A DNA stretch of 53,717 nucleotides, taken from Candidatus Poseidoniaceae archaeon (GTDB lineage Archaea > Thermoplasmatota > Poseidoniia > Poseidoniales > Poseidoniaceae). The DNA lies in the NCBI GenBank assembly GCA_028821785.1, contig JAPKFC010000003.1, forward strand, positions 1 to 53,717, written 5' to 3'. Positions 12,901-51,173 of this stretch are shown here, piece after piece. Position 1 is the stretch's first letter, and the number at the start of each line of letters is the position of its first letter. The position numbers and the translations under genes were made by a program. The notes under the pieces are model-generated. The model was not told the DNA's origin and made no database searches. It saw only the letters and a program-made list of their open reading frames with translations.

Positions 12901-13072
12901 AGAATTTTAATAAGTATGCATGGTTATTATCCGTTCCACTTTGACTTGTCCAAGCAGTTGTAATTTCAACATTTAATGGGTCAACACCATCTGCATAAAC
13001 AGAAAGTGGAGTGAGCAATAGAAGCCCAATCAGAACAATGGGAGTGATGCGTTTGTTCCCAGACATGAACAT
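9959..13072 (-). CDS. Large acidic secreted surface protein with two choice-of-anchor-X-like motifs and a C-terminal TM anchor
   Basis: Signal peptide (KRITPIVLIGLLLLTPLSVYA); LNDKGLSGDNAIGDDRYT and LYDDGSNGDKVAGDGIYS; Ig-like N(T/D)xP repeats; C-terminal TM followed by RKQ. Start moved to 13072 (or 13066) to avoid overlap with dhs. Confidence 0.75.
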   Translation of the reverse strand: MFMSGNKRITPIVLIGLLLLTPLSVYADGVDPLNVEITTAWTSQSGTDNNHAYLLKFSSNSTFDITTEVTHLQNGTELEVSIFTTWGYDDGVRTAHLLLNSTLQWGDQVTIDVTVNSIDSVATTSNNFFTRSMDIGTWNQPMADHEITLTTSWDLLQNYTTEDGEQYFSLSFDGHGWQQRVGDVLNSWELGDGVMVTEENTEGESTNMSFVLDSIWKNETITAGLLTSQVIDARGWGYLVITTEEDDTVTQIIANVSDAWINHSMIDGINSERIRLEAGGSMQIDSTNESSTTIDIDAELSVFLFETWDENGVRKLSHTQIEALGDFIIIDDGFRMDISLDGLEILERWEDGNRTQHRENLRGHGTFGAEDQDENATMVINGTIFNLETDVVDGQTVTDDIHIDGTLSGDVQGTFGIVKGIEVSGMESNYSGDEFEVNVIHEESWFNITGVNGGNFFDGAGAGAYNNNTWDYQSVNNHWDNRTVRIVWEETGPDASSGDERPERSPIQNNLTQPEMEQALGNITVGRETGLVPIPMMIGDNVRLNGQDGIVLEIVANSVGNDPRDNHNFHVVEWTGFYGDSEGSGTAFGSIIDEGPLRGLVSSVTRSFEIDYGTDNESAFLNETQYIDRVLSPSIVTSEENTDPVLVSLTLEEGLVVGEGASLAHLVAHATDDEWNIDSVTVDLTVLGGSIVTLNDKGLSGDNAIGDDRYTTQFRVPGLEVGNFTLNVTITDFFGAITQGTGIIQVVNDAPRLTSVEFVPHIAKRGDLIIVNAKAFDGHEVESVQIDMRIFGGPLTDLVLLDGDVWAGNFTLPNGMTPGSHDIPFIVTDSIGGKQVLRHWISIDNNAQPDAATPYRLPDGEQISTTISVLNTPPQIVVEELKIIRGDGTATALLEAEVSDADGVMLVRARLGVFNPITQNEDWSKLYDDGSNGDKVAGDGIYSLQLSIRSGIPDGTHTLFLQASDIYGEATGEVPIVVTLEQKSNVISDGGGISSSSLVMALGIIAIVGAIVVMFVMRKQGGEDDKSNPGGDRFGFQ

Positions 13073-13125
13073 AGGATTCTCGCACTCCCATTCAAAGCCT
13101 TTGTTGATTTGTGTTGAATAATAGT

Positions 13126-14076
13126 TCAGATATCTAAAATATAACAAAACATTAGCGGAGCAACAATAGTAGCATCGCTTTCAATTACAAACTTCTCCGT
13201 CTCAACCGAAAGTTTGCCCCAAGTTATTTTTTCATTGGGTGGGGCACCGGAATATCCCCCATAGGAAGGAGTCGATTCCGAGATTTGGCAGAACCAAGAC
13301 CACAAAGGGGTATCTTTTTCCAAGTCTTGATTGAGCATTGGTACTACACAAATTGGGAAATCTCCAGCGATTCCACCACCTAATTGCAAGAATGCCAACG
13401 GATTATTGCATTGACAATACCATTCTGCTAAACTGGTCATATATCCAATTCCACCAGTGATTGTTTGTTGCTCAACTTTACCTTGCATCACTCTTGCAGC
13501 AAATATATTGCCCAATGTTGAATCTTCCCAACCAGGTACGACCAATGGCAGATTTGCTTGTGCTGCTGCTAATAACCACGAATTCTCTGGTAATGCTTGA
13601 TACTCTAATTCATCTTCTAACAAAATATCATAAAAGAATTGGTGTGGTAATTTTGATTGCCCAAGTTGACTACTTTTTTCCCAACGGTCCATTAGATATG
13701 ATTCGATTTTTCGAAATGCTTTATCTTCGGGGATACAGGTATCTGTCACCCGATTCATGTTATTATCGAGTAAATCGGCTTCATCTTGGGCTGATAAGGA
13801 GCGCCAATCATCAATCTTTTGATAATGGTTATGAGCGACTAAATTGAATAAATCTTCTTCCAAGTTTGCACCTGTACATGAGATTGCTGCAATATGTCCT
13901 GCTCTGATCATAGGCGCAATACTGCGCCCGAGTTCAGCCGTTGACATCGCCCCGGCTAAAGTTAAAAATATCTTACCGCCAGATTCTAGAAATTGAAGTA
14001 ATGATTCACTCGCTGATGCTAATGAACCGGCATTAAAATGGCGGTAGTGCTCTTTGACAAACGTTCTCACGGACAT
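13126..14076 (-). CDS. Deoxyhypusine synthase-like protein (bacterial-type; possible homospermidine synthase)
   Basis: HFNA, TLAGAMSTAELG, CTGANLEED, GGGIAGDF and YGGYSGAPPNEKITWGK (catalytic Lys retained). Confidence 0.88.
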   Translation of the reverse strand: MSVRTFVKEHYRHFNAGSLASASESLLQFLESGGKIFLTLAGAMSTAELGRSIAPMIRAGHIAAISCTGANLEEDLFNLVAHNHYQKIDDWRSLSAQDEADLLDNNMNRVTDTCIPEDKAFRKIESYLMDRWEKSSQLGQSKLPHQFFYDILLEDELEYQALPENSWLLAAAQANLPLVVPGWEDSTLGNIFAARVMQGKVEQQTITGGIGYMTSLAEWYCQCNNPLAFLQLGGGIAGDFPICVVPMLNQDLEKDTPLWSWFCQISESTPSYGGYSGAPPNEKITWGKLSVETEKFVIESDATIVAPLMFCYILDI

Positions 14077-33249: not shown

Positions 33250-35799
33250 ATGAGCGCACCTCCTATCATCACTGAATTTTCAGTGGAGGCTCTAGTGCCC
33301 TTGTTTTTTGCAATATCTGCAGCTTTATTGTTTTGGAATAGAATCGTTCCAAGACAACTACGAGGTTTACAAGTTGCCTTTGAAACTGGTGAGAAGAGAT
33401 ATGAAGTTCACAAAGTCACAACGTCATTTCAAGATGCCAAGGATTTACTCGCTAGTAAATACATGAGATTCGGAGTTTCTTCATATCTATTCGCATTGAC
33501 AGGAACACTTCTGCTCTTTTTTGAATATCTAATGATTCGTTTTGATATTTATTCAGGCTACCATGCACAAACATTAGCATTGGCACTATTGATGATCACC
33601 TGGCCTGCTGTTGTATCAAGTGGTGCATCTCTTGGCGCTCAAGTCATCAAACCTCTCGGCAATACAAGAGCGACTTTACAAGATTCTTCGATTTGGAGAA
33701 CATATTCATATTTGTTATTAGCAATAATTTGGTTCGGTTTAGTTGCTATCATCGTCTTAGCATTAGACATTAAGGGCGTTCCACAGAACCGAATCTTCTC
33801 GATAGCAGCATTTACTGCTTTCTCACCAGCAATATTAGCCTACGGTAGAATACTAGGTTCCTCTTGGCAAGCACTACATCAGTCTAGCAAAAAAATTGCT
33901 GCTGGAGAAGCTTCGCCCTTCCATAATCACATTCCGTCTACAAAACAAATCGCTGTCGCTTCAATAGTAAAATGGAATCTAATAGCAATGCCATTTGTCG
34001 CCATTAATACTGTTATTTCGCTAATTGCACTATTATATGATCCAACACTATTTGTTCACTCCGATAGGGTACTCGAACTTCCAGAGTATAGTATTCAATC
34101 AACGATAATGGAAGAAGGAGGTTTGCTCGGCTTTGGATTGATTGAACTATTCGCATACATTCCTCAAGCCGGCATTAGAGTTCCAATGGTCACTGGAATG
34201 CTTCTTTTCCTTCTTCTCAACGTAGCATTAATCGGATTCCTATTCATCTATGAAGTTGCAAGGATTCTTTTCCTCGATATCCAAGATGTTTCGGGTAGAG
34301 GGGGAATAAAGTTAGCAGACTCACGGTTATTGAGAGCCGAAATCTCTGTCCAAGCAAAAGTTCTAAATTTTTGTTTTACCGGATTTGCTGGACAAAGTAT
34401 GCTATTGCTATCACTGGCGATGATAACATTCTGGGATTCAAGTTTTCTGCCTCAAGGTGAAACATGTGGCTCTTGGGAGAATAGCGTTTGCAGCATACTG
34501 ACAAAGGATGGTTTAGAAGAATTAACATGGATGTTGGCCGCAGGTGGTCAAATTTCTTTCCTCTTTGTATGGGCAGGTTCTATCAATCGAGGCAGTAAAT
34601 TAGAAGATATCAATTTTGATGCTTCAATGAGTGAGAATAGAGAGGTGTTAACTCAATTAGAAGATAAAATATACCTCAAACAAAAACCAATTTCACAACT
34701 AATCGCTGATGATGAATGGGGTAGGTTATTCAAACAACTGGACATAATTTTAGAAGGGCATGGAGAAGACCTAGAAGGGCTTGACCTAGTTAGGAGAATT
34801 AGTGCTAAAATGACCGTATATTGTAGCCTTGGGCGTTGGGATGAGGCTGAAGAGGAAGCGGTTTCATTACTGGCCTTGCGCGGTGGTAGAGAAGCTCATA
34901 TTGCGAGACTTGTGCTAACTGCTGCTAGCCTTGCTCAAAGAGATCTAGCGGAAGCCAAACCTCGTTTAGCATTCTTATCTGAGGATGATATTGAAGGTGC
35001 TCGGCTACAATGGTTTGCCAGTATTATAAGCCCTAAATCAAGAAAACTTTCACCTGAATTTCATGCAATGCTTGCTGTTGACCCACTGACTAAGAGAAAT
35101 ATGGACCTGATAAAGAGATTGATCACGGGCACCTCTGTTAGTAAATTGAAACCACATAATAATCCAGCTGGAAGGATGCAATTTTTAGGCGACATTGCTA
35201 GGCTAAGATTAGAAGGGCAATATGAAAGAGCAATCAATTTACTTGAGGAGTTTATTGCGGAAAATAATATTAAAAAATGGCCACATGGCAACTTAGTTCG
35301 TGCTTTAATTAACTACGATGAGGGTCGAATTAATACCGCTGCGGATATGACTGAGAAATTATTTGATAAAAATTCACGCCATCCACATATCCGCTCATTT
35401 ATTCACCATTTAGCCACTATCGGCCATACTGAATATTCATTACATGAAGAAACTGGAATGGAATGGTGTATTGATTCAGGATTGGATTGGGTCGGTTCTT
35501 GGGAAAAGATGCACAATGTTGCACCAGCACCCGAACTTCGCAATAAGAAATTGAAGAAACATGCTTGGAAAGCAAATGCTTGGATTGCTCATGATGTTGG
35601 AAATGGCTTACAATCGGCACTGGCCAAGAAAGCAAAGGCTTGGAAGACATTGAGTGTGGACGATTCAGCCCTTCCGATTTGCCTATACACTCATCTAACT
35701 GGAATTGTTGTTACCGTGGGTGGAATGCCGGTTGATTTGGGATTACCTGGTTATCTTGATTTGAAGAGAATCGAGGCAAACGGTCTAATCGATTTGTGA
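33250..35799 (+). CDS. Large hypothetical polytopic membrane protein with a TPR-like helical C-terminal region
   Basis: About 9-10 hydrophobic segments in the N-terminal half; helical repeats (LGRWDEAEEEA, GQYERAINLL, GRINTAADM) after. Confidence 0.75.
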   Translation: MSAPPIITEFSVEALVPLFFAISAALLFWNRIVPRQLRGLQVAFETGEKRYEVHKVTTSFQDAKDLLASKYMRFGVSSYLFALTGTLLLFFEYLMIRFDIYSGYHAQTLALALLMITWPAVVSSGASLGAQVIKPLGNTRATLQDSSIWRTYSYLLLAIIWFGLVAIIVLALDIKGVPQNRIFSIAAFTAFSPAILAYGRILGSSWQALHQSSKKIAAGEASPFHNHIPSTKQIAVASIVKWNLIAMPFVAINTVISLIALLYDPTLFVHSDRVLELPEYSIQSTIMEEGGLLGFGLIELFAYIPQAGIRVPMVTGMLLFLLLNVALIGFLFIYEVARILFLDIQDVSGRGGIKLADSRLLRAEISVQAKVLNFCFTGFAGQSMLLLSLAMITFWDSSFLPQGETCGSWENSVCSILTKDGLEELTWMLAAGGQISFLFVWAGSINRGSKLEDINFDASMSENREVLTQLEDKIYLKQKPISQLIADDEWGRLFKQLDIILEGHGEDLEGLDLVRRISAKMTVYCSLGRWDEAEEEAVSLLALRGGREAHIARLVLTAASLAQRDLAEAKPRLAFLSEDDIEGARLQWFASIISPKSRKLSPEFHAMLAVDPLTKRNMDLIKRLITGTSVSKLKPHNNPAGRMQFLGDIARLRLEGQYERAINLLEEFIAENNIKKWPHGNLVRALINYDEGRINTAADMTEKLFDKNSRHPHIRSFIHHLATIGHTEYSLHEETGMEWCIDSGLDWVGSWEKMHNVAPAPELRNKKLKKHAWKANAWIAHDVGNGLQSALAKKAKAWKTLSVDDSALPICLYTHLTGIVVTVGGMPVDLGLPGYLDLKRIEANGLIDL

Positions 35800-37231: not shown

Positions 37232-37305
37232 ATTCACCCCTCTCCTCAGCAAGCCGGCGCGAGTCGGTATTGAACATTGCCACTAAACAAGGTGGGGTGA
37301 TTGTT

Positions 37306-39093
37306 ATGGCTGATTGCTTACTAGGCAATTCTATGCAAGCATGGGCTGATGTCGAAAAGGCGATTCAGGCCGAGAAATTAATGCGCAATAAGAAGATGGA
37401 TAATCTTGTTAATTTCAGTGCTTTTTCACTATTGGCTGCTGCAATATGGTTAGCATGGCCGGCACTTAATTCTGCAATTGAAGGAGAAAGTGGAATCGTT
37501 TCAGGATTGGGCCTGCCAATCATAATATTGTTATGGGGAGTAATAATTCAAGATATAGTCGTTGATGACGCTAAAGCACGTTCAAGAGTAGGCGGTGGAG
37601 CAAGTATCATTTGGCCGATATTGTTGATGATCGGTGCGTTGAATGTAGATTTTACCCTCTCAACTGCGACTTTAGGTAGTATCCTAGTGATAATAGTTGC
37701 ATTATATTGCTACAAATCAGCCGCAAGTACCCTACAAGGTAACCTCGGAGTACTTCGCTTTCGTTCTTTGATGACCGGTGTTGGCTGTCTGACATCTTTT
37801 TCACTATTTATTGGAAAAATGCCTGAAAGTATGACTACACATTGGTTTTTAACAATCTCAATACTATTGATTTCATTTACTGAAGTAACCTATACCTGGG
37901 TAAAAGGTGATGATCAAAAAGAGATTAGGAAAAGGTTTAGAAAATTATTAGATCAAGTTGAAAATCAATTATTAGAATTGAAAGCAAAGGGTGCAGCTGT
38001 AGACCAAGCCAGTAGTTTGGTGACAACTGCGCAAGAGGAAGGACATATTGATCCAGTTTATGGGATGAGGCTACTAGATGATGCTCAAGAGGAGATTAAA
38101 CGCTCAATTTCACTTGCTGGTGATGTTAAAGTCATTATGCAAGATGCAAAATCTGCAGTAGAGGCTGCTGAGGATATAGCACCTATTGCAAAGCGTCCAA
38201 GAAAGTCTTTCAATGCTGGTGTTAGAGAAGTTGAATTGGGCTCATTGCGTGATGGAGAGTTACTCTTTAGGCAAGCCAAGAAATCTGCAAATGAGATTAT
38301 TGAGTGGTGGCGTCCTGCTGAAAATGCAATTACTGAAGCCTCACGCCAACTAAGTGGCAAAAGTGGAGATGCTGTTGAGCACTTAGTAGAAATGTTGGCT
38401 GATGCCAAGAAAAAATTATCTTCTGAAAAGCCAAAGGAGGCTTTTGAATATGCAGTAGTAATTCCTCAGCAATTGGCAGCAGATGGTGATGCGCAAGCCA
38501 AAGCAGAGAAATCTGTCAATGAAGCAGATAGACAACTCAAGCAAACAGATGGATTAGATACCTCTGATATGGAAAAACGATTATCTCAAGCAAAAGAAGA
38601 AATGGAAAAAGGCAATGCAAGCCAAGCGATGGGTTTAGCAGATGGAGTTGTAAGGACAATTATTGCTGAACGGGCTGCAATGGATGATGTTCGCAAAGCA
38701 TTACGTCAACGCAAGAAATTAAAAAAGCAATTTGAATCGAGAGAGGATATAGAGATGTGGCAATCTAAACTTGATGATATTGATGCTGCAGCTGATGAAA
38801 AGCAATGGACGCATGCTGCTACTCTGCTCGATAGGATGACCAAAGAACTCGACAAAGAAGGCCGTGCTAGCGATGATGCTCTAGAATTATATGATTTCGT
38901 AATGGATGAATGGAGAATCCTACGCAATCAATGTGAAGCAGCATTCATCAAAGTTACTGACGATGATCGTCGTGACTGTGAACAGGCGATTGCTCTTGCA
39001 GAAGAAGAACTTGGAGTTGGCAGAATACCCGAGTGTTTGGAACTATTATCAAAGGCAGATTCTGCAATGGAAAAATTACGAAGAAGGATCTAA
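37306..39093 (+). CDS. Hypothetical membrane protein with about 6 TM segments and a long cytoplasmic helical-repeat/coiled-coil region
   Basis: GGGGTGA SD before the ATG at 37306; Ala/Glu/Lys-rich helical pairs over about 390 aa. Confidence 0.75.
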   Translation: MADCLLGNSMQAWADVEKAIQAEKLMRNKKMDNLVNFSAFSLLAAAIWLAWPALNSAIEGESGIVSGLGLPIIILLWGVIIQDIVVDDAKARSRVGGGASIIWPILLMIGALNVDFTLSTATLGSILVIIVALYCYKSAASTLQGNLGVLRFRSLMTGVGCLTSFSLFIGKMPESMTTHWFLTISILLISFTEVTYTWVKGDDQKEIRKRFRKLLDQVENQLLELKAKGAAVDQASSLVTTAQEEGHIDPVYGMRLLDDAQEEIKRSISLAGDVKVIMQDAKSAVEAAEDIAPIAKRPRKSFNAGVREVELGSLRDGELLFRQAKKSANEIIEWWRPAENAITEASRQLSGKSGDAVEHLVEMLADAKKKLSSEKPKEAFEYAVVIPQQLAADGDAQAKAEKSVNEADRQLKQTDGLDTSDMEKRLSQAKEEMEKGNASQAMGLADGVVRTIIAERAAMDDVRKALRQRKKLKKQFESREDIEMWQSKLDDIDAAADEKQWTHAATLLDRMTKELDKEGRASDDALELYDFVMDEWRILRNQCEAAFIKVTDDDRRDCEQAIALAEEELGVGRIPECLELLSKADSAMEKLRRRI

Positions 39094-40551: not shown

Positions 40552-40893
40552 ATGCTACAACGAGTTCTTGCCGGTTTACTTCGAATTGAAGGGGTTGATC
40601 AGGCTATGTTAATTGATGATAACGGCCGTTTGTTGGCAAGTGTCGGAAATGAAGGTATATTGCCACCTTTGGACAAGGCGATTAAGATTACAACTGCTGC
40701 ATTGGAATGCGCATACGCTACTGAAATTGGCGATGTGTTTGAAATTTGGTGCGAGGGGAGTGAGAGAATGATGATAGACATCGCATCTCCAAACCGCATA
40801 GTAGTGCTAAGTGGAAAGGGTGGCCGTCTTGCTAGATGGCGCCATGCTTTGGACCGAGATCGTCGCATCATCGCGACAACACAAATGAGTTGA
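40552..40893 (+). CDS. Roadblock/LC7 (MglB-like) domain protein
   Basis: 113 aa; LQRVLAGLLRIEGVDQAMLIDDNGRLLAS matches the roadblock helix-beta start, followed by a helix and three short strands. Confidence 0.7.
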   Translation: MLQRVLAGLLRIEGVDQAMLIDDNGRLLASVGNEGILPPLDKAIKITTAALECAYATEIGDVFEIWCEGSERMMIDIASPNRIVVLSGKGGRLARWRHALDRDRRIIATTQMS

Positions 40894-40898
40894 TACCT

Positions 40899-43800
40899 AT
40901 GTTTGACCTACCAATTGGAAAGCCTATCAAAGAAAAAATATCTGTTGAGGCAGGTTCTATACAGTCATTTGACCATGGAATAATTACCACATGGCTGGGA
41001 AGAAGGAAAACTCCTTCTGGCCATCGTTTAATTCGTGCTGGAAGAATTGTTGCATGGATTTGTGAAAACGAAACTGGAAAGTATCTACTCGCTGGTAATG
41101 AGGCAAAAAATAGACTGGAGGAAATAGAAAGTTCTGGCGCCAGATTAGAAGGCAGCCAATACTCTATGGCAGGGTTGGGCTGCGTTGCAGAAATCATTCC
41201 TGAATCGTTTGAATTCAATGCAGACCGCCAAGGATTGATTCCTCGCGGAAATGCTGTTGAACGACTACTATCACGTGACCTTTCATCTGTTCTACGCATA
41301 ATTTGCGAAAATGTCACGGTTCGAGGCGCTATTGCAGTTGATGCTGGTATGCTGATAGATAGTGTTGGTGAATTACCTGGTGAAGCAGAGGAACTTGCGG
41401 CTCAAGTTGGAACTGCAATAGATGCTAGGAGCTCATTATCAAATAATCTGGGCTTAACCAATCAAGGACACTGGACTCTCCACACCGCCGATGGTTCGCT
41501 ATTACTTGCCCAAACTGGTGAAATTGCAATAGCTGTTTGGACTGAGACAAATTCTGATCATTCAAGGATAATTACTGCTGCGTCTGCTGCTCTTGATGGA
41601 GAGATAGGAAGCACTGGTGCTTTGGGTTCTGAATTACCAGATGGTTTCGTAATGCGTGAAGGAAAGGGAGGCCCGGGTGCGATTATTTCAATGCTTGAAG
41701 CAGCGATAAGTGAACAAGTAACAGGCCACATCAAATCAGGAATTACTGAAAATACTGCTGTGTCTCTTGTACTAAGCAAGGGCATACCTATGACAATTTC
41801 TGCACCAAATAATGTTTCTTTTGAAGAAGCGATATTGAATTTAACGGATTCCAAGAGAGTCCTCAAACTTCACCGACTACCAACAGGGACAATCGTATCA
41901 AAGGAAAGTGGGAATCTTAGTGATTTTACTCTCGCCGACTTTAGAGATTTAATCGCTACAATCCGAACCCGTTCGGAATCAAGAAAAGAAACATTGACGC
42001 AAAAAATCAATCTCTTAATGGGATTCGAAATAGGCGTAGAGGCATTGCGTAAGGCGAGAGCACATGCAAAGTTCAAGACGACTCTGGATCACACTTCACA
42101 AGGTCTACCTGAGGTTGAAGCAGAACCTGCTCCTGCCGTAGATGCTGGACTGAGAAGAAGATTAGAGGCCGCTGAACTTGAAATTGATGATTTAACTAAG
42201 GGTAATGCTTCACTGAATGCTAAATTAAATGACGCCCAAACTGCAAAAACTGCTGCTCAAAGTCTTGCTCGCCATGCTACCGAAAGTAGTGGTGAACAAA
42301 CATCTGCTTTGGAATCTGCCAACTCTTCTCTAAATTCTATGCAAGTTGATTTGTCTCAGGCCGTATCTAAGAGCGAAGATGCAGAATCAAGAGCGCTTCG
42401 TTTGGTAAAGAGGGTAAATGAATTAGAGCATCAGGTTAGTGAAAGAGCAAGTCAGTTAGCTAAAGCACTAGGAGATTCCAAATCTAGTGAGGCTCTTAGA
42501 GATGCAATTCAAGATATGGCTCTAAAAGAGGCTGAATTAAATTCTTCATTGGATGAAGGTAGCGAAAGATTGTCCACAATCCGTCAGCAATCTGATGATG
42601 ATGAACGCCGCCTTCGAGTATTGCAAGAGCAAGTTGAGACTACGCGTGAACGTCATGCAAGGGCTCAGGCTGAATTGATGCAACTAGAAGAGAGAATTCA
42701 TGTTGCAAATACAAACCTCGATGAAGTTGATTCTGAAACAAAGGCCAGTAGACGCAGAGCTGAAGAAAATAGAACTCGTCTCGCTCAAGATGAGGCAAGA
42801 CATAGTCAAGTGCAAGCAGAATTACGAGAATTGATGGATGAACGACGCCAAGTATTGCGAGAACTAGGTGATATTGGAGGTCGTAAAGGCCAGAGTGAAG
42901 CAGAATTATTATCATTAATAGATAAGGCTGAAGATTTGAGTCAAGCACACGAAGAAGCATTGCTGGACATCCAGGAAGCAGAGAGAATCCGTGCTCGTCT
43001 CGCTGACGAACCACTGGCTCAAGCATTATTGGATGATGCTTCAACCTTTGAGGGGCTAGGACCTGTGCTTTCACGCCTTGAAACTGCACGTGGACTCGGA
43101 TATTCCGTTACATTACTGGATAGGGCAGTAGAACGTGCACTACAAGTAATTCAGTCAACCGTTGACCATGTAGCAACTACTCCGAGACATTTACTTTCAA
43201 ATGAAGTAATGACATTGCTTGAAAGACAAGTTCCGCAAACCGCTGGAGCGGTAAGGGGATTAGCACGTTGGTCTGTACAACAGAGATTAGAACATCAATT
43301 GGGAGATACAGTTGGCCATTTGATTGTTGATTTGGAGAATTTGCTAGAAGATTTCGACCGTTCTATTACAATGCTGCGACGCCTACGCAATGTCCTTGAG
43401 CAATTAGCAAAACTTGGCGCACCTGTGGATGAAATCGAAGCACTGTTAGCAAATTGTAATCGTCCTGAAGCATTACCAAGTATTGCAAAAGCGACTCATA
43501 AATTGATTCGTGTCGCATTAGATGACATTTACTTAGAGGCTGATCAAAGAGATGCTGGAGAATCAATCGCATTAGAGGAAACTGCAAGAGTTCTTGAGGA
43601 GTTAATCACTCAACTTGATGCCAGTGGTTTAGCCGATGGTACACCTAATGGTATTATGTGGGAATTCCAAAGAGATGGATTGTTACCTTATGAGAGAAAT
43701 ACAATGCCTGCGGCACAGCGTCTTGATGTCAATGATGAAATGATTTCTCATATGGAACCATCATTAGCAGGAGAAGTTCCAGTCTCATTGGATAAAGCAG

Positions 43801-44090
43801 TAAGTGATGATGCTTCAGAGGCTTCGGAGGAAGATGATGAAGATGGATGGCAACAAATGCCCACTCCAAGTGATTCAACTGAAAGTACTGCTGCAACATA
43901 TATTGCTGCCCCTGAAGCACCCGCTCTCCCCCAACCTGGAACAATCAATGAAGATGATGAAAGAGCCTTGCTAGATGAAGAATTAGCACGCCTAGATGCT
44001 GCATGGGATCACAGAAATGACCCAAAGGATTTGGCAATGGACCCTGCATTATCTGCATTAGAGGCAAAACTTAGCGGATTAGATATGTGA
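40899..44090 (+). CDS. Large multidomain protein: PATAN/DUF2226-like, roadblock/LC7, second PATAN-like domain, long coiled coil, helical domain, acidic tail
   Basis: Start moved to MFDLP (40899), 5 nt after the roadblock gene stop. Internal roadblock LSSVLRIICENVTVRGAIAVDAG...WTLHTADGSLLL; Ala/Glu/Arg heptads. Confidence 0.7.
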   Translation: MFDLPIGKPIKEKISVEAGSIQSFDHGIITTWLGRRKTPSGHRLIRAGRIVAWICENETGKYLLAGNEAKNRLEEIESSGARLEGSQYSMAGLGCVAEIIPESFEFNADRQGLIPRGNAVERLLSRDLSSVLRIICENVTVRGAIAVDAGMLIDSVGELPGEAEELAAQVGTAIDARSSLSNNLGLTNQGHWTLHTADGSLLLAQTGEIAIAVWTETNSDHSRIITAASAALDGEIGSTGALGSELPDGFVMREGKGGPGAIISMLEAAISEQVTGHIKSGITENTAVSLVLSKGIPMTISAPNNVSFEEAILNLTDSKRVLKLHRLPTGTIVSKESGNLSDFTLADFRDLIATIRTRSESRKETLTQKINLLMGFEIGVEALRKARAHAKFKTTLDHTSQGLPEVEAEPAPAVDAGLRRRLEAAELEIDDLTKGNASLNAKLNDAQTAKTAAQSLARHATESSGEQTSALESANSSLNSMQVDLSQAVSKSEDAESRALRLVKRVNELEHQVSERASQLAKALGDSKSSEALRDAIQDMALKEAELNSSLDEGSERLSTIRQQSDDDERRLRVLQEQVETTRERHARAQAELMQLEERIHVANTNLDEVDSETKASRRRAEENRTRLAQDEARHSQVQAELRELMDERRQVLRELGDIGGRKGQSEAELLSLIDKAEDLSQAHEEALLDIQEAERIRARLADEPLAQALLDDASTFEGLGPVLSRLETARGLGYSVTLLDRAVERALQVIQSTVDHVATTPRHLLSNEVMTLLERQVPQTAGAVRGLARWSVQQRLEHQLGDTVGHLIVDLENLLEDFDRSITMLRRLRNVLEQLAKLGAPVDEIEALLANCNRPEALPSIAKATHKLIRVALDDIYLEADQRDAGESIALEETARVLEELITQLDASGLADGTPNGIMWEFQRDGLLPYERNTMPAAQRLDVNDEMISHMEPSLAGEVPVSLDKAVSDDASEASEEDDEDGWQQMPTPSDSTESTAATYIAAPEAPALPQPGTINEDDERALLDEELARLDAAWDHRNDPKDLAMDPALSALEAKLSGLDM

Positions 44091-44110
44091 ACACGGCTTT
44101 GGTCGTAACC

Positions 44111-44117
44111 GAGGAGG
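44111..44117 (+). promoter_or_regulatory. Shine-Dalgarno GAGGAGG
   Basis: 7 nt upstream of the TTG start at 44125. Confidence 0.6.
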
Positions 44118-44124
44118 AATTGTA

Positions 44125-44373
44125 TTGAGCGAAACACTTGTTGGTCGTCAAGAAAAGCAAGGTCGATACTTTCCAATGTGGTTGGAAAGATTACTACTTG
44201 TTTCAGCTATTCTTACAATGTATCTATTTCATTCAGATGTTGGTAATTTTTTCCAATCGCAAGGTGCTCCGGATTGGTTAATTTTTATCATTGAATGGTT
44301 CTTATTACCAATTTCATTACTAGTGCTATCTGAATTGATTGGCAGGGTAATGCAAGCAGTTCACAGTGATTGA
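44125..44373 (+). CDS. Small 2-TM membrane protein
   Basis: TTG start with a strong SD; two hydrophobic segments; co-oriented 34 nt after the coiled-coil gene. Confidence 0.6.
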   Translation: MSETLVGRQEKQGRYFPMWLERLLLVSAILTMYLFHSDVGNFFQSQGAPDWLIFIIEWFLLPISLLVLSELIGRVMQAVHSD

Positions 44374-44375
44374 GA

Positions 44376-45602
44376 TCAAGCATCAATTTTTATTAAATCT
44401 TTACCGCTCTCTTGTGCAGTTTCGTTACTTGGTAAACGTGACTGAATTAGACCCCAGACTCTCTGCCAAGGGATGAAGAAGCGCATCACTGCCATCAATG
44501 ATAAGAACATCAATGCTGAGATTACCATGCCATAGGTTAGGGTCAATTCTATCGATTCACTAACTTGACCTGCCCATTGAGAACCTGTGGTATTGCTAAC
44601 GATTTCCAATAGCACACTGTGGAATCCTAATGCCACCATCGTTGCAATCGCTGTCAATCCTAAGAATCCAATCGTATGTCGTAGATGACCGTTTAGCATA
44701 TTATCCATCTGTCGAACATATTCTGGGTCTCTTTTACAAGACTCTGGAAGGCGGTAGGCATACTCAAGATAACGAATTACTCCATAAGATGATTCTTGGA
44801 AGACCATGATTAGAATTGCAATAGCAATCAAATTGAATTGCTCTTGAGTAACTAATTTGAAACCGAGTAGTCCAATTGTTGGAGAGCCCACCTGGCTTTC
44901 AAGTGTTATGAATTGGGCTCCATATGAACCGAGTTGTCCTTTGATAAGCGGGAAAGTCAAAATTGCATGTATTCCCAAGAAGATCAAAGTGAACCCTATT
45001 GCCCAAGCAACTGAACGACGACTTAATCCCCAAATTCCTCTAGTTCCCATAATAACTGGTAGAAGATAAATGAAGAGAATAATTATTGACATTATCATCA
45101 ATAATGGCCATTGAAGAGTTTGTAGTTCTGAATCATTTGGTAGGCGCAAATCAAAAGAAAACAACATTCCAGCTAACCAAGAAAGAATTAGACGCCCCAC
45201 TAACATTACGATCAAGGTAATAATAAATCCAAGTTTTATTCTCTGCTGCATTTGTGGTGTTTGGAATGCTAAGAAGGCCATTCCACCTCCAATAGACATT
45301 CCCAGTATAAGAGGGACAAAGAAGCGACTTAAGCCATCTCTACCTTCACCTGTTAACCAATCCCCTAATGGCAGTTGGTCGCCAATTAGTAATTCAATTG
45401 AATCAAATAACATTGTGTGGTCAATAGAGCCAACAACATATGTTGAAACAACTTCGAGATACATCGCTATCAAAGCAACTGTTGCCAAGATTTGCAAAGT
45501 CAGAATTTGCCATTGCTTCCTCAGCAATTTCAAGTGAAGGGTGCGAGCACCAATACCATCTGTCATTGTGACATCTGACTGAACATCGACTTCACTTGCC
45601 AT
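44376..45602 (-). CDS. Hypothetical polytopic membrane protein
   Basis: About 9 TM segments; starts 1 nt after the DUF58 stop, so probably the same operon. Confidence 0.75.
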   Translation of the reverse strand: MASEVDVQSDVTMTDGIGARTLHLKLLRKQWQILTLQILATVALIAMYLEVVSTYVVGSIDHTMLFDSIELLIGDQLPLGDWLTGEGRDGLSRFFVPLILGMSIGGGMAFLAFQTPQMQQRIKLGFIITLIVMLVGRLILSWLAGMLFSFDLRLPNDSELQTLQWPLLMIMSIIILFIYLLPVIMGTRGIWGLSRRSVAWAIGFTLIFLGIHAILTFPLIKGQLGSYGAQFITLESQVGSPTIGLLGFKLVTQEQFNLIAIAILIMVFQESSYGVIRYLEYAYRLPESCKRDPEYVRQMDNMLNGHLRHTIGFLGLTAIATMVALGFHSVLLEIVSNTTGSQWAGQVSESIELTLTYGMVISALMFLSLMAVMRFFIPWQRVWGLIQSRLPSNETAQESGKDLIKIDA

Positions 45603-45603
45603 T

Positions 45604-46857
45604 TCAGTACCCCCTAACCTGCATTAATGCCTGTGACAAATCCATGTCTGGCATCCAATCAATAACCTGTGCACCAGAACCTGCTAATGTCGTTAAACGG
45701 TTCTGCCTTTCTAATTTTAGAACTTCGTATGACATTCTTGGAATTCTTGAAACCAATCTTTCAAAGTCGATACTAGATGGACTTAGAACTGTTACTTCGT
45801 GTCCTCGTCCAACTAAATCACGTACTGCTGCGGGAACTGTTCCATCCCCTTCACAACTTGAAATTATGAATACAGGAGATCCTCTACTGAATCTTCCGCT
45901 AAGAGAATTAGTAACTGCTTGTAAAGGCATATTTCCTTTTGGAGTTACACCCGCAAGTGCACTCAAAATCTTGAAATATTGCTTGTCGCCTGTGTCTGGA
46001 GGTAAGTAGGATAGTTCATCGCCATATATTGCCAAAGCAACTGAATCTCTGCGATGCAAGAAGAATGATGCTAAACTGGCAGATGAGACACAGCTCATTT
46101 CCAGTGGATTTTTTAGAACTGTTCCAATTCGTGCAACATCTCGACTATCGAGTAATATGTACAAATCGGTTACTGCATCTCTACACTTTTCATTGACCAT
46201 TAATTCACCAGTACGTGCATATGCCTTCCAATTGATATTCTTGAATGGGTCTCCAGGAACATATTCACGCAAAGAATAGAATTCAGAACCTTGACCTGGG
46301 ATTCTTAGTGTTGTTGCACCAGTATACATCTTAGGTGTGCGAGAACGAAGGAATGCTTCTTCAATATCTTTTATTTGAGGGAAGATAACTATGTCGGAAT
46401 GATGGTCGACATACATTTCTTCAACCCCTAGATTGAATGTATTCTTGGCTCTAAGTGAGACTGGACCAATAGAATAATGCCCACGCAGTGGACATCTTAG
46501 AACATAACGAATACGAGCACTTTCACCAGGGCGTAAGTTCAAACGCATCTGATTTAAGCCACTGCGCAATTTCATTTCATGAGGAATATTATCGTATACT
46601 TCTAGCAACTGAGTCTTACGGTTACTACGGTTAGTGATTAGAAGTTCAACATAGAGATCGTCACCTTTGTACAAATTGTCGGCACTCAATTTTCTTTGAA
46701 CTTCGACATCACCATGTCCAGAAATCCATGAATTGACAACAATGAATGCTACAAAGGCAAATCCTAAAATCATCATTTGATGATTTGAGATCATCATACC
46801 AATCAGAATGAGGGCAATTCCCCCGGTAAATGTGAATGCTGCTTTACGAGTCCACAT
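45604..46857 (-). CDS. DUF58 family protein (MoxR-associated, vWA-like)
   Basis: N-terminal TMs; GSEFYSLREYVPGDPFKNINWKAYAR, ILLDSR (MIDAS-like), PPDTG and IISS motifs. Confidence 0.9.
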   Translation of the reverse strand: MWTRKAAFTFTGGIALILIGMMISNHQMMILGFAFVAFIVVNSWISGHGDVEVQRKLSADNLYKGDDLYVELLITNRSNRKTQLLEVYDNIPHEMKLRSGLNQMRLNLRPGESARIRYVLRCPLRGHYSIGPVSLRAKNTFNLGVEEMYVDHHSDIVIFPQIKDIEEAFLRSRTPKMYTGATTLRIPGQGSEFYSLREYVPGDPFKNINWKAYARTGELMVNEKCRDAVTDLYILLDSRDVARIGTVLKNPLEMSCVSSASLASFFLHRRDSVALAIYGDELSYLPPDTGDKQYFKILSALAGVTPKGNMPLQAVTNSLSGRFSRGSPVFIISSCEGDGTVPAAVRDLVGRGHEVTVLSPSSIDFERLVSRIPRMSYEVLKLERQNRLTTLAGSGAQVIDWMPDMDLSQALMQVRGY

Positions 46858-48477
46858 TCAAATCACCTCAGTCCTGCCCCAAGCCTTGATTCTTTTAACC
46901 AAAGCAACGGTTTGTTCTAATGAATATTTACTTTTCGAGTCAATTGCAAATTTAGCAAGCACAGGGTCATTGATTAGCCCAACTAATTCTCTTGCGGGCA
47001 AAGCATGGAACTCCTCCCTCGTCAATCCATTTTGATTACGTATTTTTGACAAGAAAACTTGGTGTATCTTTTCTACTTTAGAATAATAAACATACCTATT
47101 AGCATCTCCAAAGCCGTAGTAAATAATACTGAATACGTGCCTCCATGGCTCAGGGTCACGCTTTTTGATAAGTACTGCTTCAAATGCAACAAACAATAGC
47201 AGGAATAGAATTAGCATAGCCAATCCTTCTCCTGTAAAGTATACAAGTAAGAAATAAACGGTGTTATACGAATCTGCGAGAAGGGCATTTTGAGGGTGCC
47301 TTGATTCATCGAAGATTACCATAGCATTGTCCGATGCCTGACCTTCTTCGCCAATTTTTGTACTCATTAGAGACTCTGCAATTACATCCAATGCCCACTT
47401 ACGGTTGTCATTATCTGGAATTAAATTACTCACATCCCCATACTTGCCATCATTGAATCCTTGATAGTCATACATTGCATTCATCAGGGCTGAACCGTCA
47501 GCAACAAAGATGATTTTTCCACCATCATTTGGATCACAAGTTGAACGAGCGCATGCTTCTATGCTGAGATTGAATTGACCCCACAAATCCGGTGTCTCGG
47601 TTGTAACTTCACTACCAACCCAAATTTCCCCATCTCCGTTTACATCAACTGTTGCCTCATTACTTGTAACAGCACGAATAGCAACTTCTGGAAGTGCCCC
47701 TTGAACACCAGGCATTATTTCCAATCCAGTGATATTGTTTAGAAGTAATTTGTAAGATGGGTCAAAATTTACAACACCATTATTCCAGTGATGACCACAA
47801 ATTCCGGCAGCCTCTAAGGTCATTGAATTTCCATCCAGTGATTTACAAGGATGTGTTCCTTCTCCGTTTTCACCACCCCACCTTTCGTGTTGTGTAACGG
47901 TATCAAGGTCTATTTCAGTACCATTCATTCCACATGGATTTGCTTGTACACACATCCAAATATAATTGAAATCAAGTTCGGTTGCATAAGTTGTATCAAA
48001 TAACTGATAACCATTGTAACGCACTCCGAATGCTTCAGCTATAGTTCCTGCAAATCCGAAGTCTTCAAGAATTAATGCCGTTCCTCCAGCTTCAACAAAT
48101 TCTACTATTGCTATCACTTCAGAAGGTGAATAACCATCATCGGTTGAGATTGTAATAAATCCATCATCATCAAATTGAGGTAGTGAGAGTGTATCTCTTT
48201 CTACACCTGCAACGACGAATGTGGTATTTCTTGGATCTTCAATATCCGCTAGTAACAATGGAGACGAAACCAATGAACGTGTATCAATTCCCATTTCATT
48301 CAAATCTTCTCTAAAGGCCGACATATCATTCCAATCATCATCGTATGCTGATAATTGATTTGTATTTGAGATGTTAACAAAATTTAGCAATATAGTCATC
48401 AATAGCATAGAAAGTACAAACCAAAAAGCGACTTGTAATCCGAGCCTTCGATAATTCAATTTGCTAAGTTCAACCAT
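46858..48477 (-). CDS. DUF4350-like membrane-anchored extracellular protein
   Basis: N-terminal TM; YDDDWNDMSAFR, FVEAGGTALILEDFG, GKIIFVAD, DNRKWA and IFDESRH; C-terminal TM. Start moved to 48477. Confidence 0.7.
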   Translation of the reverse strand: MVELSKLNYRRLGLQVAFWFVLSMLLMTILLNFVNISNTNQLSAYDDDWNDMSAFREDLNEMGIDTRSLVSSPLLLADIEDPRNTTFVVAGVERDTLSLPQFDDDGFITISTDDGYSPSEVIAIVEFVEAGGTALILEDFGFAGTIAEAFGVRYNGYQLFDTTYATELDFNYIWMCVQANPCGMNGTEIDLDTVTQHERWGGENGEGTHPCKSLDGNSMTLEAAGICGHHWNNGVVNFDPSYKLLLNNITGLEIMPGVQGALPEVAIRAVTSNEATVDVNGDGEIWVGSEVTTETPDLWGQFNLSIEACARSTCDPNDGGKIIFVADGSALMNAMYDYQGFNDGKYGDVSNLIPDNDNRKWALDVIAESLMSTKIGEEGQASDNAMVIFDESRHPQNALLADSYNTVYFLLVYFTGEGLAMLILFLLLFVAFEAVLIKKRDPEPWRHVFSIIYYGFGDANRYVYYSKVEKIHQVFLSKIRNQNGLTREEFHALPARELVGLINDPVLAKFAIDSKSKYSLEQTVALVKRIKAWGRTEVI

Positions 48478-48634
48478 AATCTCACCTACTAGAGCATAAT
48501 TCCGACAAAGCCACGCAAGCATATTGGTTTAGAAGGTTGCCCACACTTGAGAGAATAATGCTCAACTCTACCATTCCCTCACAACACTGTAAAAGTGCTA
48601 AAAAACATATTTAAACAGTATTTTTAGAGATGAT

Positions 48635-48874
48635 TCAGCGAGTCAGATGGACTTTAGTTGCAATCCTTGATACTTCAGCCACAGGCACACTTACAATTCC
48701 ATCCTTGGCAACCCAAGGTAGTAACTCAGCATCAAGATCCATACCAATTTTTACTAGAAATTCTGTTATTGCCCCTAACTGATTATCAAAAACAATATCA
48801 ATTAATTGCCCGAGAACTTCGCCGTGAGAGTCGACAACTTCTCTTCCAATTAACTCTCGACCAAAGATTGCCAT
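48635..48874 (-). CDS. PRC-barrel domain protein
   Basis: ELIGREVVDSHGEVLGQLIDIVFDNQLGAI ... VSVPV ... RIATKV matches the PRC-barrel pattern. Confidence 0.85.
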   Translation of the reverse strand: MAIFGRELIGREVVDSHGEVLGQLIDIVFDNQLGAITEFLVKIGMDLDAELLPWVAKDGIVSVPVAEVSRIATKVHLTR

Positions 48875-48947
48875 ATGCCTCACTTGCTCCGTAATATCCC
48901 AACGGGGGGATGAACTCCTTCAATGCGTCGCCAGCAAGTAGCCTAAA

Positions 48948-51173
48948 TCACATGGTTTCCATGCCGAATCCATTGTCACGAGTACGCTTGATATTAGATA
49001 ATCCAGAAGTCAAACGCTCCTCCATCTTTTGGTAATACTGTAGCATTTCATGGGTAACTGTTGGACGGACACGAGAAATTGCTTCCTCGAAGTGTGATTT
49101 GGTTACCTTCTTCTTGTTAGCCCGCATTGCAATCAATCCTGCTTCACGGCATACTGCTTCAATGTCGGCACCAGTGAATCCATCCAATCCACCAATAATA
49201 TCCTTAATAGAGAACTTACTCAATGGCATTTCACTGATATGTATATTGAAAATTTGTTCTATTGCCTCAGCATCCGGTGGTGGAATATGCAATACACGCT
49301 CAAAGCGACCACTGCGAAGTAATGCAGGGTCGATCATCTCTGGCCTATTTGTTGCTGCGATGACGATAACACCGTCTAATGAGTCAACACCATCCATGCT
49401 GGCCAATAATTGATTGACCACGCGATTTGAAACATCGCTTCCATCTGAAGAAGAGCCTGAGCGCATGCTAGCAATGGATTCAAATTCATCTAAGAAGATA
49501 ATTGCCGGTGCAGATTGCTTTGCTTTCTTGAAAATTTCTCGCACTGCACGTTCAGATTCTCCGACCCACTTTGAAATCATTTCAGGACCTTTAATACTGA
49601 TGAAATTTGCTTGGGCTTCGTTTGCAACTGCCTTAGCAAGTAATGTTTTTCCAGTTCCTGGTGCGCCAAATAGCACAATACCGCGGGGTGGTTTTATTCC
49701 GAAATGTTTGAATTGTTCTGGCTTGGTTAGTGGCCATTCAACCGATTCCTTGAGCCTATCCTTAACCTCTTTGAGACCGCCAACTTCTTCCCAAGTAACC
49801 TTAGGAATTTCAACATATATTTCACGCAATGCAGAAGGTTCTATGTCTTTGATTGCGCCTTTGAAATCATTCATTCTAACTTCCATCTTTTCCAAAACCT
49901 CTGGTGGAATCGTCTCTTCTTCCAAATCCATTTCTGGCAAATAGCGACGTAGTGCAAGCATTGCTGATTCACGAACTAAAGCTGCAAGATCTGCTCCAAC
50001 GAAACCATATGTATTGTCTAGAATCCAATTTACATCAAAGTCTTCTGAAATCGGCATTCCGCGAATGTGAACATCCATTATCTCGTTTCGGCCTTCTCTA
50101 TCTGGAACGCCTATCTCAATCTCTCTATCAAAACGTCCTGGTCTCCTAAGAGCGGGGTCCAACGCATCTCTACGATTTGTTGCACCGATAACGACGACAT
50201 TGTCTCGCCCTTGCATACCATCCATTAGAGTAAGCATCTGAGCAACGACTCTTCTTTCTACTTCACCGCTAACCTCTTCTCTCTTAGGACAGATTGAATC
50301 TATTTCGTCAATGAAAATAATCGCTGGTGCATTTTCACTTGCTTCATCGAATATCTCACGCAATTGTTTCTCAGATTCACCGTAATACTTGGAGATGATC
50401 TCAGGACCGTTAATAATTTTGAAATGTGCGTTTACTTCTGTGGCAACCGCCTTTGCAATCATGGTTTTCCCTGTACCCGGGGGTCCGTGCAATAGAACTC
50501 CTTTTGGAGGGTCAATTCCCAAACGACGGAATAACTCAGGGTGCTTTAGAGGCAATTCAATCATCTCTCTAACCTTAAGCAATTGTTGGCCTATACCTCC
50601 AACATCCTCATAGGTGATTCCCCCGGTCTGGCCAACATCTTCAGCTTCCAACGGTTCATCTTTGATGACAATATCAGTTTCAAGTGTAACCTTGACAATA
50701 CCTTTTGGAGTTGTGCTCAATACAGCAAAGGGAAGTGCCTCGGCGAACATTGTCATTCCTGGAATAAAAATTCTATCACCTTTAACGACTGGGCGCTTGG
50801 ATAATCCTCTACGAGCAAAACCTTCAATTCCATGACCGAATTTAACCTTCTGTTTATTCGCCATCACTGGAGAAAGTGTCAATTTGGTACATTCCTTTGC
50901 CTCAACTTTGGAAACTGTTACCGCATCGCCCAAACTGACTCCTGCATTTTTTCTAACCATTCCATCGACACGAATTAAATCCATCTTTTCATCTTCAGGT
51001 CTGCTTCGCCAATAAATTGCACCGGTAGAACGTTCTTCACCCTTGATTTCAACGATATCGCCTGGTTTTAATCCAAGCGCGTTTCCACCAGAAATACGAG
51101 CTCTACCGTGAGCAACATCGGATGGTATTGCTTTTGAAACGCGTAATGTAATTGAATCCTTTTTATCTGCCAT
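48948..51173 (-). CDS. cdc48: CDC48/VAT AAA+ ATPase
   Basis: N domain plus two AAA modules ([25 protein letters not shown] and [24 protein letters not shown]); pore loops KYYG and KWVG. Confidence 0.96.

Follow-up and report, generated by a model that had tools for sequence, protein, structure and literature searches.

A candidate GTPase-independent Roadblock scaffold encoded by a two-gene cassette of Poseidoniales

Elsewhere, Roadblock proteins are known to work with small GTPases (MglA, Rag) or with dynein. We describe a Roadblock-encoding locus in a 53,717-nucleotide (nt) stretch of DNA from a Candidatus Poseidoniaceae archaeon (GenBank assembly GCA_028821785.1, contig JAPKFC010000003.1, positions 1 to 53,717), the whole of which we call the window. 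The locus comprises gene 1 (Robl-S), gene 2 (Big, which has three small head domains, D1 to D3, in front of a long coiled coil) and gene 3 (TM82), all listed in Table 1. Poseidoniales (Marine Group II) are among the most abundant archaea of the surface ocean and are uncultured, and their cell organisation is almost unknown.

The D2 domain of Big shares its fold with MglB of Myxococcus xanthus and Thermus thermophilus (Foldseek matches 6hjm, 6izw, 3t12 and 1j3w, with template modelling (TM) scores of 0.64–0.79). MglC is an MglB paralogue that binds MglB without touching the GTPase (PMC7949163, PMC10329633), and the archaeal cassette likewise encodes a second Roadblock paralogue alongside Big. 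However, no MglA or small GTPase was found in this archaeal genome, the Roadblock of Big is embedded in a 1063-amino-acid (aa) rod protein, and the distribution of the cassette does not follow that of the motility apparatus. The fold of D2 also resembles that of the Ragulator components LAMTOR2/3 and LAMTOR4/5 with the C-terminal Roadblock domains of Rag (Foldseek 1veu, 5yk3, 5x6u and 6ehr). In principle the arrangement could be similar too: Roadblock dimers stacked into a platform that another protein holds in place, a stacking that we propose here by analogy. The likeness is at the level of the fold only (12–16% identity), and Rag GTPase domains and a LAMTOR1-like lipidated wrap are missing from the archaeal locus.

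The best matches of D2 were stand-alone Roadblocks from Asgard archaea (7f8m, 7yh1 and 9jue; E 3.8e-6, TM score 0.77–0.80). Asgard Roadblocks are accompanied by many small GTPases (PMC10933270), whereas the Poseidoniales set comes without small GTPases, and one of its copies forms a single protein with a rod and a novel end domain. Stand-alone archaeal Roadblocks (those of Asgard, and arCOG02603 in type IV pilus loci) are small, as are Robl-S and Robl3, the latter encoded elsewhere in this genome. PATAN genes are named as known neighbours of mglB homologues in the part of PMC4316618 that cites Makarova et al. 2006. D1 and D3 differ from the bacterial PATAN (DUF4388) domains in having no hidden Markov model (HMM) support from PF14332 or PF09987.

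Our analyses point, with belief and doubt about evenly balanced, to a dispensable, Poseidoniales-specific two-gene cassette, made up of Robl-S and Big, that acts as a GTPase-independent Roadblock scaffold, adaptor or tether. Three Roadblock units and no small GTPase are found in this abundant lineage, and one of the units is mounted on a rod whose length is constant across the order. A literature search on Roadblock in Marine Group II found no description of this family; the papers that came up dealt with Asgard archaea and with how eukaryotes arose.

Roadblock domains, rod and novel end domain

A sequence-only reading of this DNA had taken gene 1 for a stand-alone Roadblock protein, and profile comparisons bear this out. 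The window copy of Robl-S matches PF03259 with E 1.5e-4 and 21.9 bits (curated cut-off 23), over residues 3–30 only; 20 of 27 orthologues match the same profile at E ≤ 0.01, the best of them at 4e-6. Aligned by hhalign, the Robl-S and Robl3 families agree over 94 columns with 93.5% probability. On the strength of these profiles we classify Robl-S as a divergent Roadblock protein and a Roadblock paralogue. Its C-terminal tail (GGRLARWRHALDRDRR) is basic and conserved, with 8 basic and 2 acidic residues, and W96, R97 and H98 are invariant in the orthologue alignment.

The three genes are co-oriented, and the open reading frame (ORF) coordinates agree with the gaps of 5 nt (genes 1 and 2) and 34 nt (genes 2 and 3) noted earlier. 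Of 79 related loci, all from species-level genomes, 78 show the conserved gene order that the same reading required. Big is preceded by a gene of about 113 aa in 78 of them and followed by one of 80–85 aa in 78, and the gap between gene 1 and Big lies between −8 and 11 nt in 77 of the 79. All three genes, TM82 included, are probably co-transcribed. We place the start of Big at ATG 40899 (MFDLPIG): the motif M-F-x-L-P-x-G, the conserved extreme N-terminus of D1, opens all relatives. A longer version from ATG 40836 was rejected, as it overlaps gene 1 and its start is not conserved.

AlphaFold models of Big residues 1–395 contain three domains, with a mean predicted local distance difference test (pLDDT) score of 82.7 (14 sequences, identity down to 25%). 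For the D2 model, MglB, Asgard Roadblock and LAMTOR structures came out on top in Foldseek (E about 4e-6, probability 1.00), and the top matches had TM scores of 0.75–0.80 and root-mean-square deviations of 2.2–2.5 Å. The sequence of D2 matches PF03259 weakly (12.4 bits, E 0.19 within the genome, model positions 15–89), and hhalign pairs D2 with Robl3 at 89.7% and E 1.8e-6. Our models therefore agree with the internal Roadblock domain previously suggested for gene 2: D2 is confidently predicted to adopt the Roadblock fold, and it is flanked by two other small domains.

These flanking domains, both well predicted in the model, had been assigned to the PATAN or DUF2226 families and described as similar to each other, and neither statement found support. 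A Pfam search of Big gave no match. PF14332 (PATAN/DUF4388) matched D1 in 0 of 14 sequences and D3 in 0 of 14, even at E ≤ 5, and gave no match at E ≤ 10 across the whole genome. PF09987 (DUF2226) touched D1 in a single one of the 14 sequences, at E 0.099; it matched nothing in the genome and nothing over the cut-off in 151 Thermoplasmatota genomes. We rejected both identities for D1 and D3, given no HMM support in family members, in the genome or in the 151 genomes. PDB profile searches with D1 and D3 produced no sequence match, a search of a viral structure library with the Big head produced nothing significant, and the Foldseek match lists for the head were filled by Roadblock. D3 runs through strand, helix, three strands, helix and strand, with invariant glycines at the places where the PATAN core has them, and in this it fits that core, without HMM support. 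Compared directly, D1 and D3 show no detectable likeness (hhalign probability 0.3%), and their strand and helix order agrees only partly. We also rejected a duplication as the origin of D1 and D3, and their reading as degenerate Roadblocks (hhalign 0.1–10%).

Behind the head and neck, Big continues into a rod of 226 proline-free residues. Its hydrophobic power at a period of 3.5 is 2.86, against 0.22 ± 0.22 in shuffled sequences, and none of 2000 shuffles reached the observed value. The rod weakly matches tropomyosin. Of the coiled coil of about 290 aa that had been proposed, the coiled coil itself stands and the length does not, the rod measuring 226 residues, or about 280 with the next helix. 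We estimate its span at about 34 nm (residues 425–650), and at up to about 41 nm when that helix is included. A conserved island at residues 497–530 (RLVKRVNELEHQVSER..LAKALGDS) lies within the rod, and an invariant glycine-rich hinge follows at residues 653–666. RTRSE and EPLAQAL lie 347–350 residues apart in 92 of 93 Big sequences, and the spacings from ALGD to RELGD (131 residues) and from RELGD to EPLAQ (50 residues) are identical in 186 of 186 motif-bearing sequences. Rod length is nearly constant while the identity of Big falls to about 26%.

The domain that follows is the most conserved part of Big, with a mean column identity of 70% vs 51% for the head. It carries a net charge of −21, and its AlphaFold model has a pLDDT of 78.5. 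Foldseek found no structural relative in the PDB (best match E 0.46), and the sequence search for relatives returned tropomyosin-like noise only. The C-terminal domain is novel, highly conserved and helical. A helical domain and an acidic tail behind the coiled coil had been anticipated from the sequence, and the AlphaFold model and the net charge of the tail (−25) agree with this. Big ends in a conserved, amphipathic peptide, A-L-x-x-L-E-x-x-L-S-D-L-D-M. We sought this motif in all other ORFs of the genome and found it in none, and the single FtsZ-like ORF ends differently. A terminal peptide shared with FtsZ or another ORF was rejected, the motif being unique to Big in this genome.

Distribution of the cassette and survival of TM82

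The Big head, searched exhaustively against 1.8 billion representative proteins, gave 63 clusters. The full-length members all have one architecture, which is the same in relatives with identity as low as 26%. Only Poseidoniales have the C-terminal domain of Big among the 151 Thermoplasmatota genomes. Within that order the cassette occurs in 111 of 161 genomes, with 94 of 96 Poseidoniaceae (Marine Group IIa) and six genera of Marine Group IIb (MGIIb) carrying it. It is missing in seven MGIIb genera with small genomes (1.2–1.7 Mb), which account for 48 of the 161. In a tree of the DUF7121 protein these seven genera form one clade (support 100/99), and the loss of the cassette is therefore best read as one event, in a streamlined seven-genus MGIIb clade.

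We examined the whole of a closed genome from the cassette-negative clade, G155 (1.60 Mb). The genes that flank the cassette elsewhere are all present, in unchanged order. Neither tblastn nor family profiles detected genes 1 and 2 anywhere in this genome, and no remnants of them were found at the deletion site, where only a TM82 orthologue lies. For 27% of the genes of the window's genome, G155 has no homologue. Genes 1 and 2 most likely form a vertically inherited, dispensable cassette specific to Poseidoniales.

Hydropathy agrees with gene 3 encoding a two-transmembrane protein, as had been read: TM82 has two hydrophobic segments. Its N-terminal motif, T-L-x-G-R-x-E-x-x-G-x-x-Y-P-x-x-x-E-R, is conserved and predicted to be cytoplasmic, and because of this conservation the TTG start is supported. 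In G155 the TM82 profile matches one ORF among 12,508 (E 3.8e-5), located between ttuA and the membrane-protein gene. The orthologue has 83 aa and the expected orientation, and it keeps most of the N-terminal motif. Its relatives fall into 18 protein clusters with 67–100% identity, and 15 of the 18 are 83 or 92 aa long. On two more contigs ttuA is followed by an 83-aa gene and then by the membrane gene. Because TM82 remains at the same site in the cassette-negative clade, the cassette proper consists of genes 1 and 2, and TM82 is a resident gene that has its own role and is probably not a dedicated anchor. The suggestion that the rod is anchored by the small membrane protein is weakened to that extent: the gene pair was deleted in one MGIIb clade, and a conserved TM82 was kept in place. 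The single-clade loss and the surviving TM82 provide natural genomes with and without the cassette, and comparing them could identify the partner.

Two database entries contain unusual copies. A contig filed as "Verrucomicrobiales bacterium isolate ARS100" (NZEQ01000033.1) carries a complete cassette with 59% identity and is probably mis-binned. A frameshift in the MG-II reference chromosome CM001443.1 splits Big into two ORFs of 947 aa and 111 aa (open frame 950), which reflects either a mistake in the assembly or a damaged gene.

Candidate partners and rival explanations

Searches for a GTPase partner were negative. PF00071 (Ras) and PF00025 (Arf) gave no match over the cut-off in this genome, which is 86% complete, and a scan of the genome for G1-G3-G4 motifs recovered only translation and housekeeping GTPases (371–755 aa) and one AAA+ ATPase. 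In the window, P-loop proteins are limited to an Mrp/NUBPL-type ATPase and CDC48. The earlier observation that the window lacks a GTPase and MinD is thus confirmed, and in the incomplete genome as a whole a Ras-like GTPase is missing too. One HflX-like GTPase of 487 aa (contig C17:139-1602 of the same genome) has no homologue in G155.

By profile searches, Robl3 on contig C23 is the only further Roadblock gene of the genome, and it matches a LAMTOR5 model at E 3.5e-3. Its locus encodes a 685-aa Cid1/TUTase-like nucleotidyltransferase with a coiled-coil tail, a GNAT protein, Robl3 itself (104 aa) and a 330-aa DUF7121 protein. In 7 of 15 loci, and also in loci L216 and L217, a gene for a 233-aa single-domain KaiC-like ATPase (PF06745, E 1.5e-28) faces Robl3 in convergent orientation. 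Robl3 evolves very fast, with 33–40% identity inside one genus. The corresponding loci of the seven cassette-negative genera (L129–L135) all lack GNAT, Robl3 and the KaiC-like gene, and the outer genes (coiled-coil protein and DUF7121) abut in 6 of 7. No homologue of GNAT, Robl3 or the KaiC-like gene was found anywhere in G155. Co-distribution of the DUF7121 protein with the cassette was rejected, as this protein occurs in 156 of 161 genomes. The KaiC-like gene is missing from the Robl3 locus in most Poseidoniaceae and is therefore no obligate partner. We regard the co-loss of Robl3 and the KaiC-like gene with the cassette as suggestive, and only as a lead.

As a GTPase-independent Roadblock scaffold, Big would form a dimer held by a parallel coiled coil. 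The Roadblock domains of this dimer would pair or stack with Robl-S and form a platform at one end of the rod, by analogy with MglB–MglC and LAMTOR–Rag. The C-terminal domain and the tail peptide may bind some cell component at a fixed distance from this platform. Such a platform, joined to a target-binding C-terminal end, would make the module a protein–protein adaptor or tether working without a Ras-like GTPase; the data allow a membrane attachment through TM82 and do not require it. Several points weigh against this picture. At the given completeness of the genome a partner gene could be missing from it, and the absence of a GTPase rests on this one genome, whereas the cassette is documented in 111. 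An antiparallel hairpin within one molecule is an alternative shape for the rod, whose most conserved motif lies near the middle between the two anchor motifs. A whole clade does without the cassette, which makes its role accessory, and the persistence of TM82 without the cassette makes membrane tethering uncertain.

The sequence-only reading had proposed that the two Roadblocks heterodimerise on a rod anchored by TM82 and form a landmark for polarity or division. In its favour, the three genes are co-oriented and tightly spaced, TM82 has a conserved, predicted cytoplasmic N-terminal motif, and a PRC-barrel gene and cdc48 are found nearby in conserved synteny. However, TM82 stays in place where genes 1 and 2 are gone, with its N-terminal motif largely intact and 67–100% identity among its relatives. 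The loss of the cassette from seven genera means that it is not a core part of division, which weakens the core role in division or polarity. Neither MinD nor a GTPase was found, and the terminal peptide of Big is not common to FtsZ or any other ORF. We consider the landmark unlikely. Big could instead resemble SMC or Rad50 as a folded rod, bent at the central ALGDS so that its head and tail domains meet, and acting on the chromosome or on other large assemblies. The position of the 497–530 island near the midpoint, 167 and 181 residues from RTRSE and EPLAQAL, and the invariant glycine-rich hinge would suit such a bend, but Big has no ATPase head and matches neither SMC nor Rad50 by sequence or fold. 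The acidic C-terminal domain (−21) and tail (−25) are unfavourable for DNA binding, and the heptad phase runs on across the central motif. The rod alignment has an effective sequence number of 23.5, too few for covariation to separate a straight rod from a hairpin. We rate a folded rod of this kind as very unlikely. By analogy with MglB and with the Roadblock genes of archaeal type IV pilus loci (PMC4858521), the cassette might also be an accessory of the archaellum or of another type IV pilus machine. Every member of the Poseidoniaceae and half the genera of the Thalassarchaeaceae carry the archaellum operon (Rinke et al., PMC6461757), a distribution that at first sight resembles that of the cassette. 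Cross-tabulation of archaellin against the cassette at the genus level rejected the link: in the MGIIb genera g5, g6 and g103 the cassette occurs where archaellin is missing, the reverse holds for g12 and g106, and the archaellum genes of this genome lie away from the cassette, on contigs C69 and C75. An archaellum accessory is accordingly extremely improbable.

A further possibility is that the Roadblock network regulates a nucleoside triphosphatase (NTPase) other than a GTPase, with the KaiC-like ATPase beside Robl3 as the candidate and Big as scaffold or output. Koonin and Aravind reportedly proposed in 2000 that Roadblock proteins are regulators of NTPases in general, a proposal to which PMC4316618 refers. 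Robl3 is the closest relative of Robl-S and D2 alike, and the convergent placement of the KaiC-like gene in part of the loci, together with the disappearance of Robl3, GNAT and the KaiC-like gene from the cassette-negative clade, would fit this idea. However, the co-loss is weak evidence, being one event on one branch where more than a quarter of the genes are missing in G155. The KaiC-like gene is also lacking from most Poseidoniaceae Robl3 loci, it looks split in L217, and its family reaches other Thermoplasmatota that are without Big. We consider an NTPase partner of this type unlikely; if it were correct, the known range of Roadblock regulation would widen. The fullest version, a GTPase-free network of three Roadblock units, the KaiC-like ATPase and GNAT, with the rod as output scaffold and one clade having discarded all of it, we judge decidedly unlikely. 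It would mean that Roadblock platforms can control a RecA-superfamily ATPase in place of a small GTPase. A GTPase-independent scaffold, adaptor or tether formed by Robl-S and Big is the explanation that we retain.

Feature coordinates and neighbouring genes

Table 1. Features of the cassette, its surroundings and the Robl3 locus (window positions unless a contig is named).
Feature	Coordinates	Strand	Description
Robl-S (gene 1)	40552-40893	+	113 aa, stand-alone divergent Roadblock/LC7 protein (predicted)
Big (gene 2)	40899-44090	+	1063 aa, Roadblock-headed coiled-coil protein
D1, residues 1-110	40899-41228	+	beta-rich: four strands, helix, strand, helices; AlphaFold pLDDT 85-93
D2, residues 125-232	41271-41594	+	predicted Roadblock/LC7 fold: helix, 2 strands, helix, 3 strands, helix
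D3, residues 250-355	41646-41963	+	alpha/beta: strand, helix, 3 strands, helix, strand, helix
Neck	41976-42170	+	helix 360-389, then variable proline-containing linker 390-424
Coiled-coil rod, residues 425-650	42171-42848	+	no proline, heptad periodicity
C-terminal all-alpha domain, residues 656-935	42864-43703	+	starts at hinge RELGD-G-R-G
Acidic proline-rich tail, residues 936-1063	43704-44087	+	net charge −25, conserved terminal peptide
TM82 (gene 3)	44125-44373	+	82-aa two-transmembrane micro-protein, TTG start
Downstream block (408-aa membrane protein to cdc48)	44376-48522, about 48635-51173	-	
Robl3 locus	own genome contig C23:11119-15844 (loci L002, L128)		conserved in cassette-positive Poseidoniales

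The upstream neighbour of the cassette, on the opposite strand, is a TtuA-type tRNA thiolation gene. Downstream and convergent to the cassette lie genes for a 408-aa multi-transmembrane protein, DUF58 and DUF4350 proteins and a small PRC-barrel protein, and then cdc48. This downstream block is syntenic in all relatives examined, cassette-free genomes included.

Three other window ORFs have no confident Pfam match. An 849-aa ORF (33250-35799, +) is without a homologue in G155, and a 1062-aa ORF (9959-13147, −) has one with 34% identity. The third (37270-39093, +) encodes 607 aa, with hydrophobic segments at the N-terminus and an extended, charged helical region; it is kept in the cassette-negative G155 with 33% identity and is therefore independent of the cassette. 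A paralogous DUF58/DUF4350 pair is present on contig C33 of the same genome.

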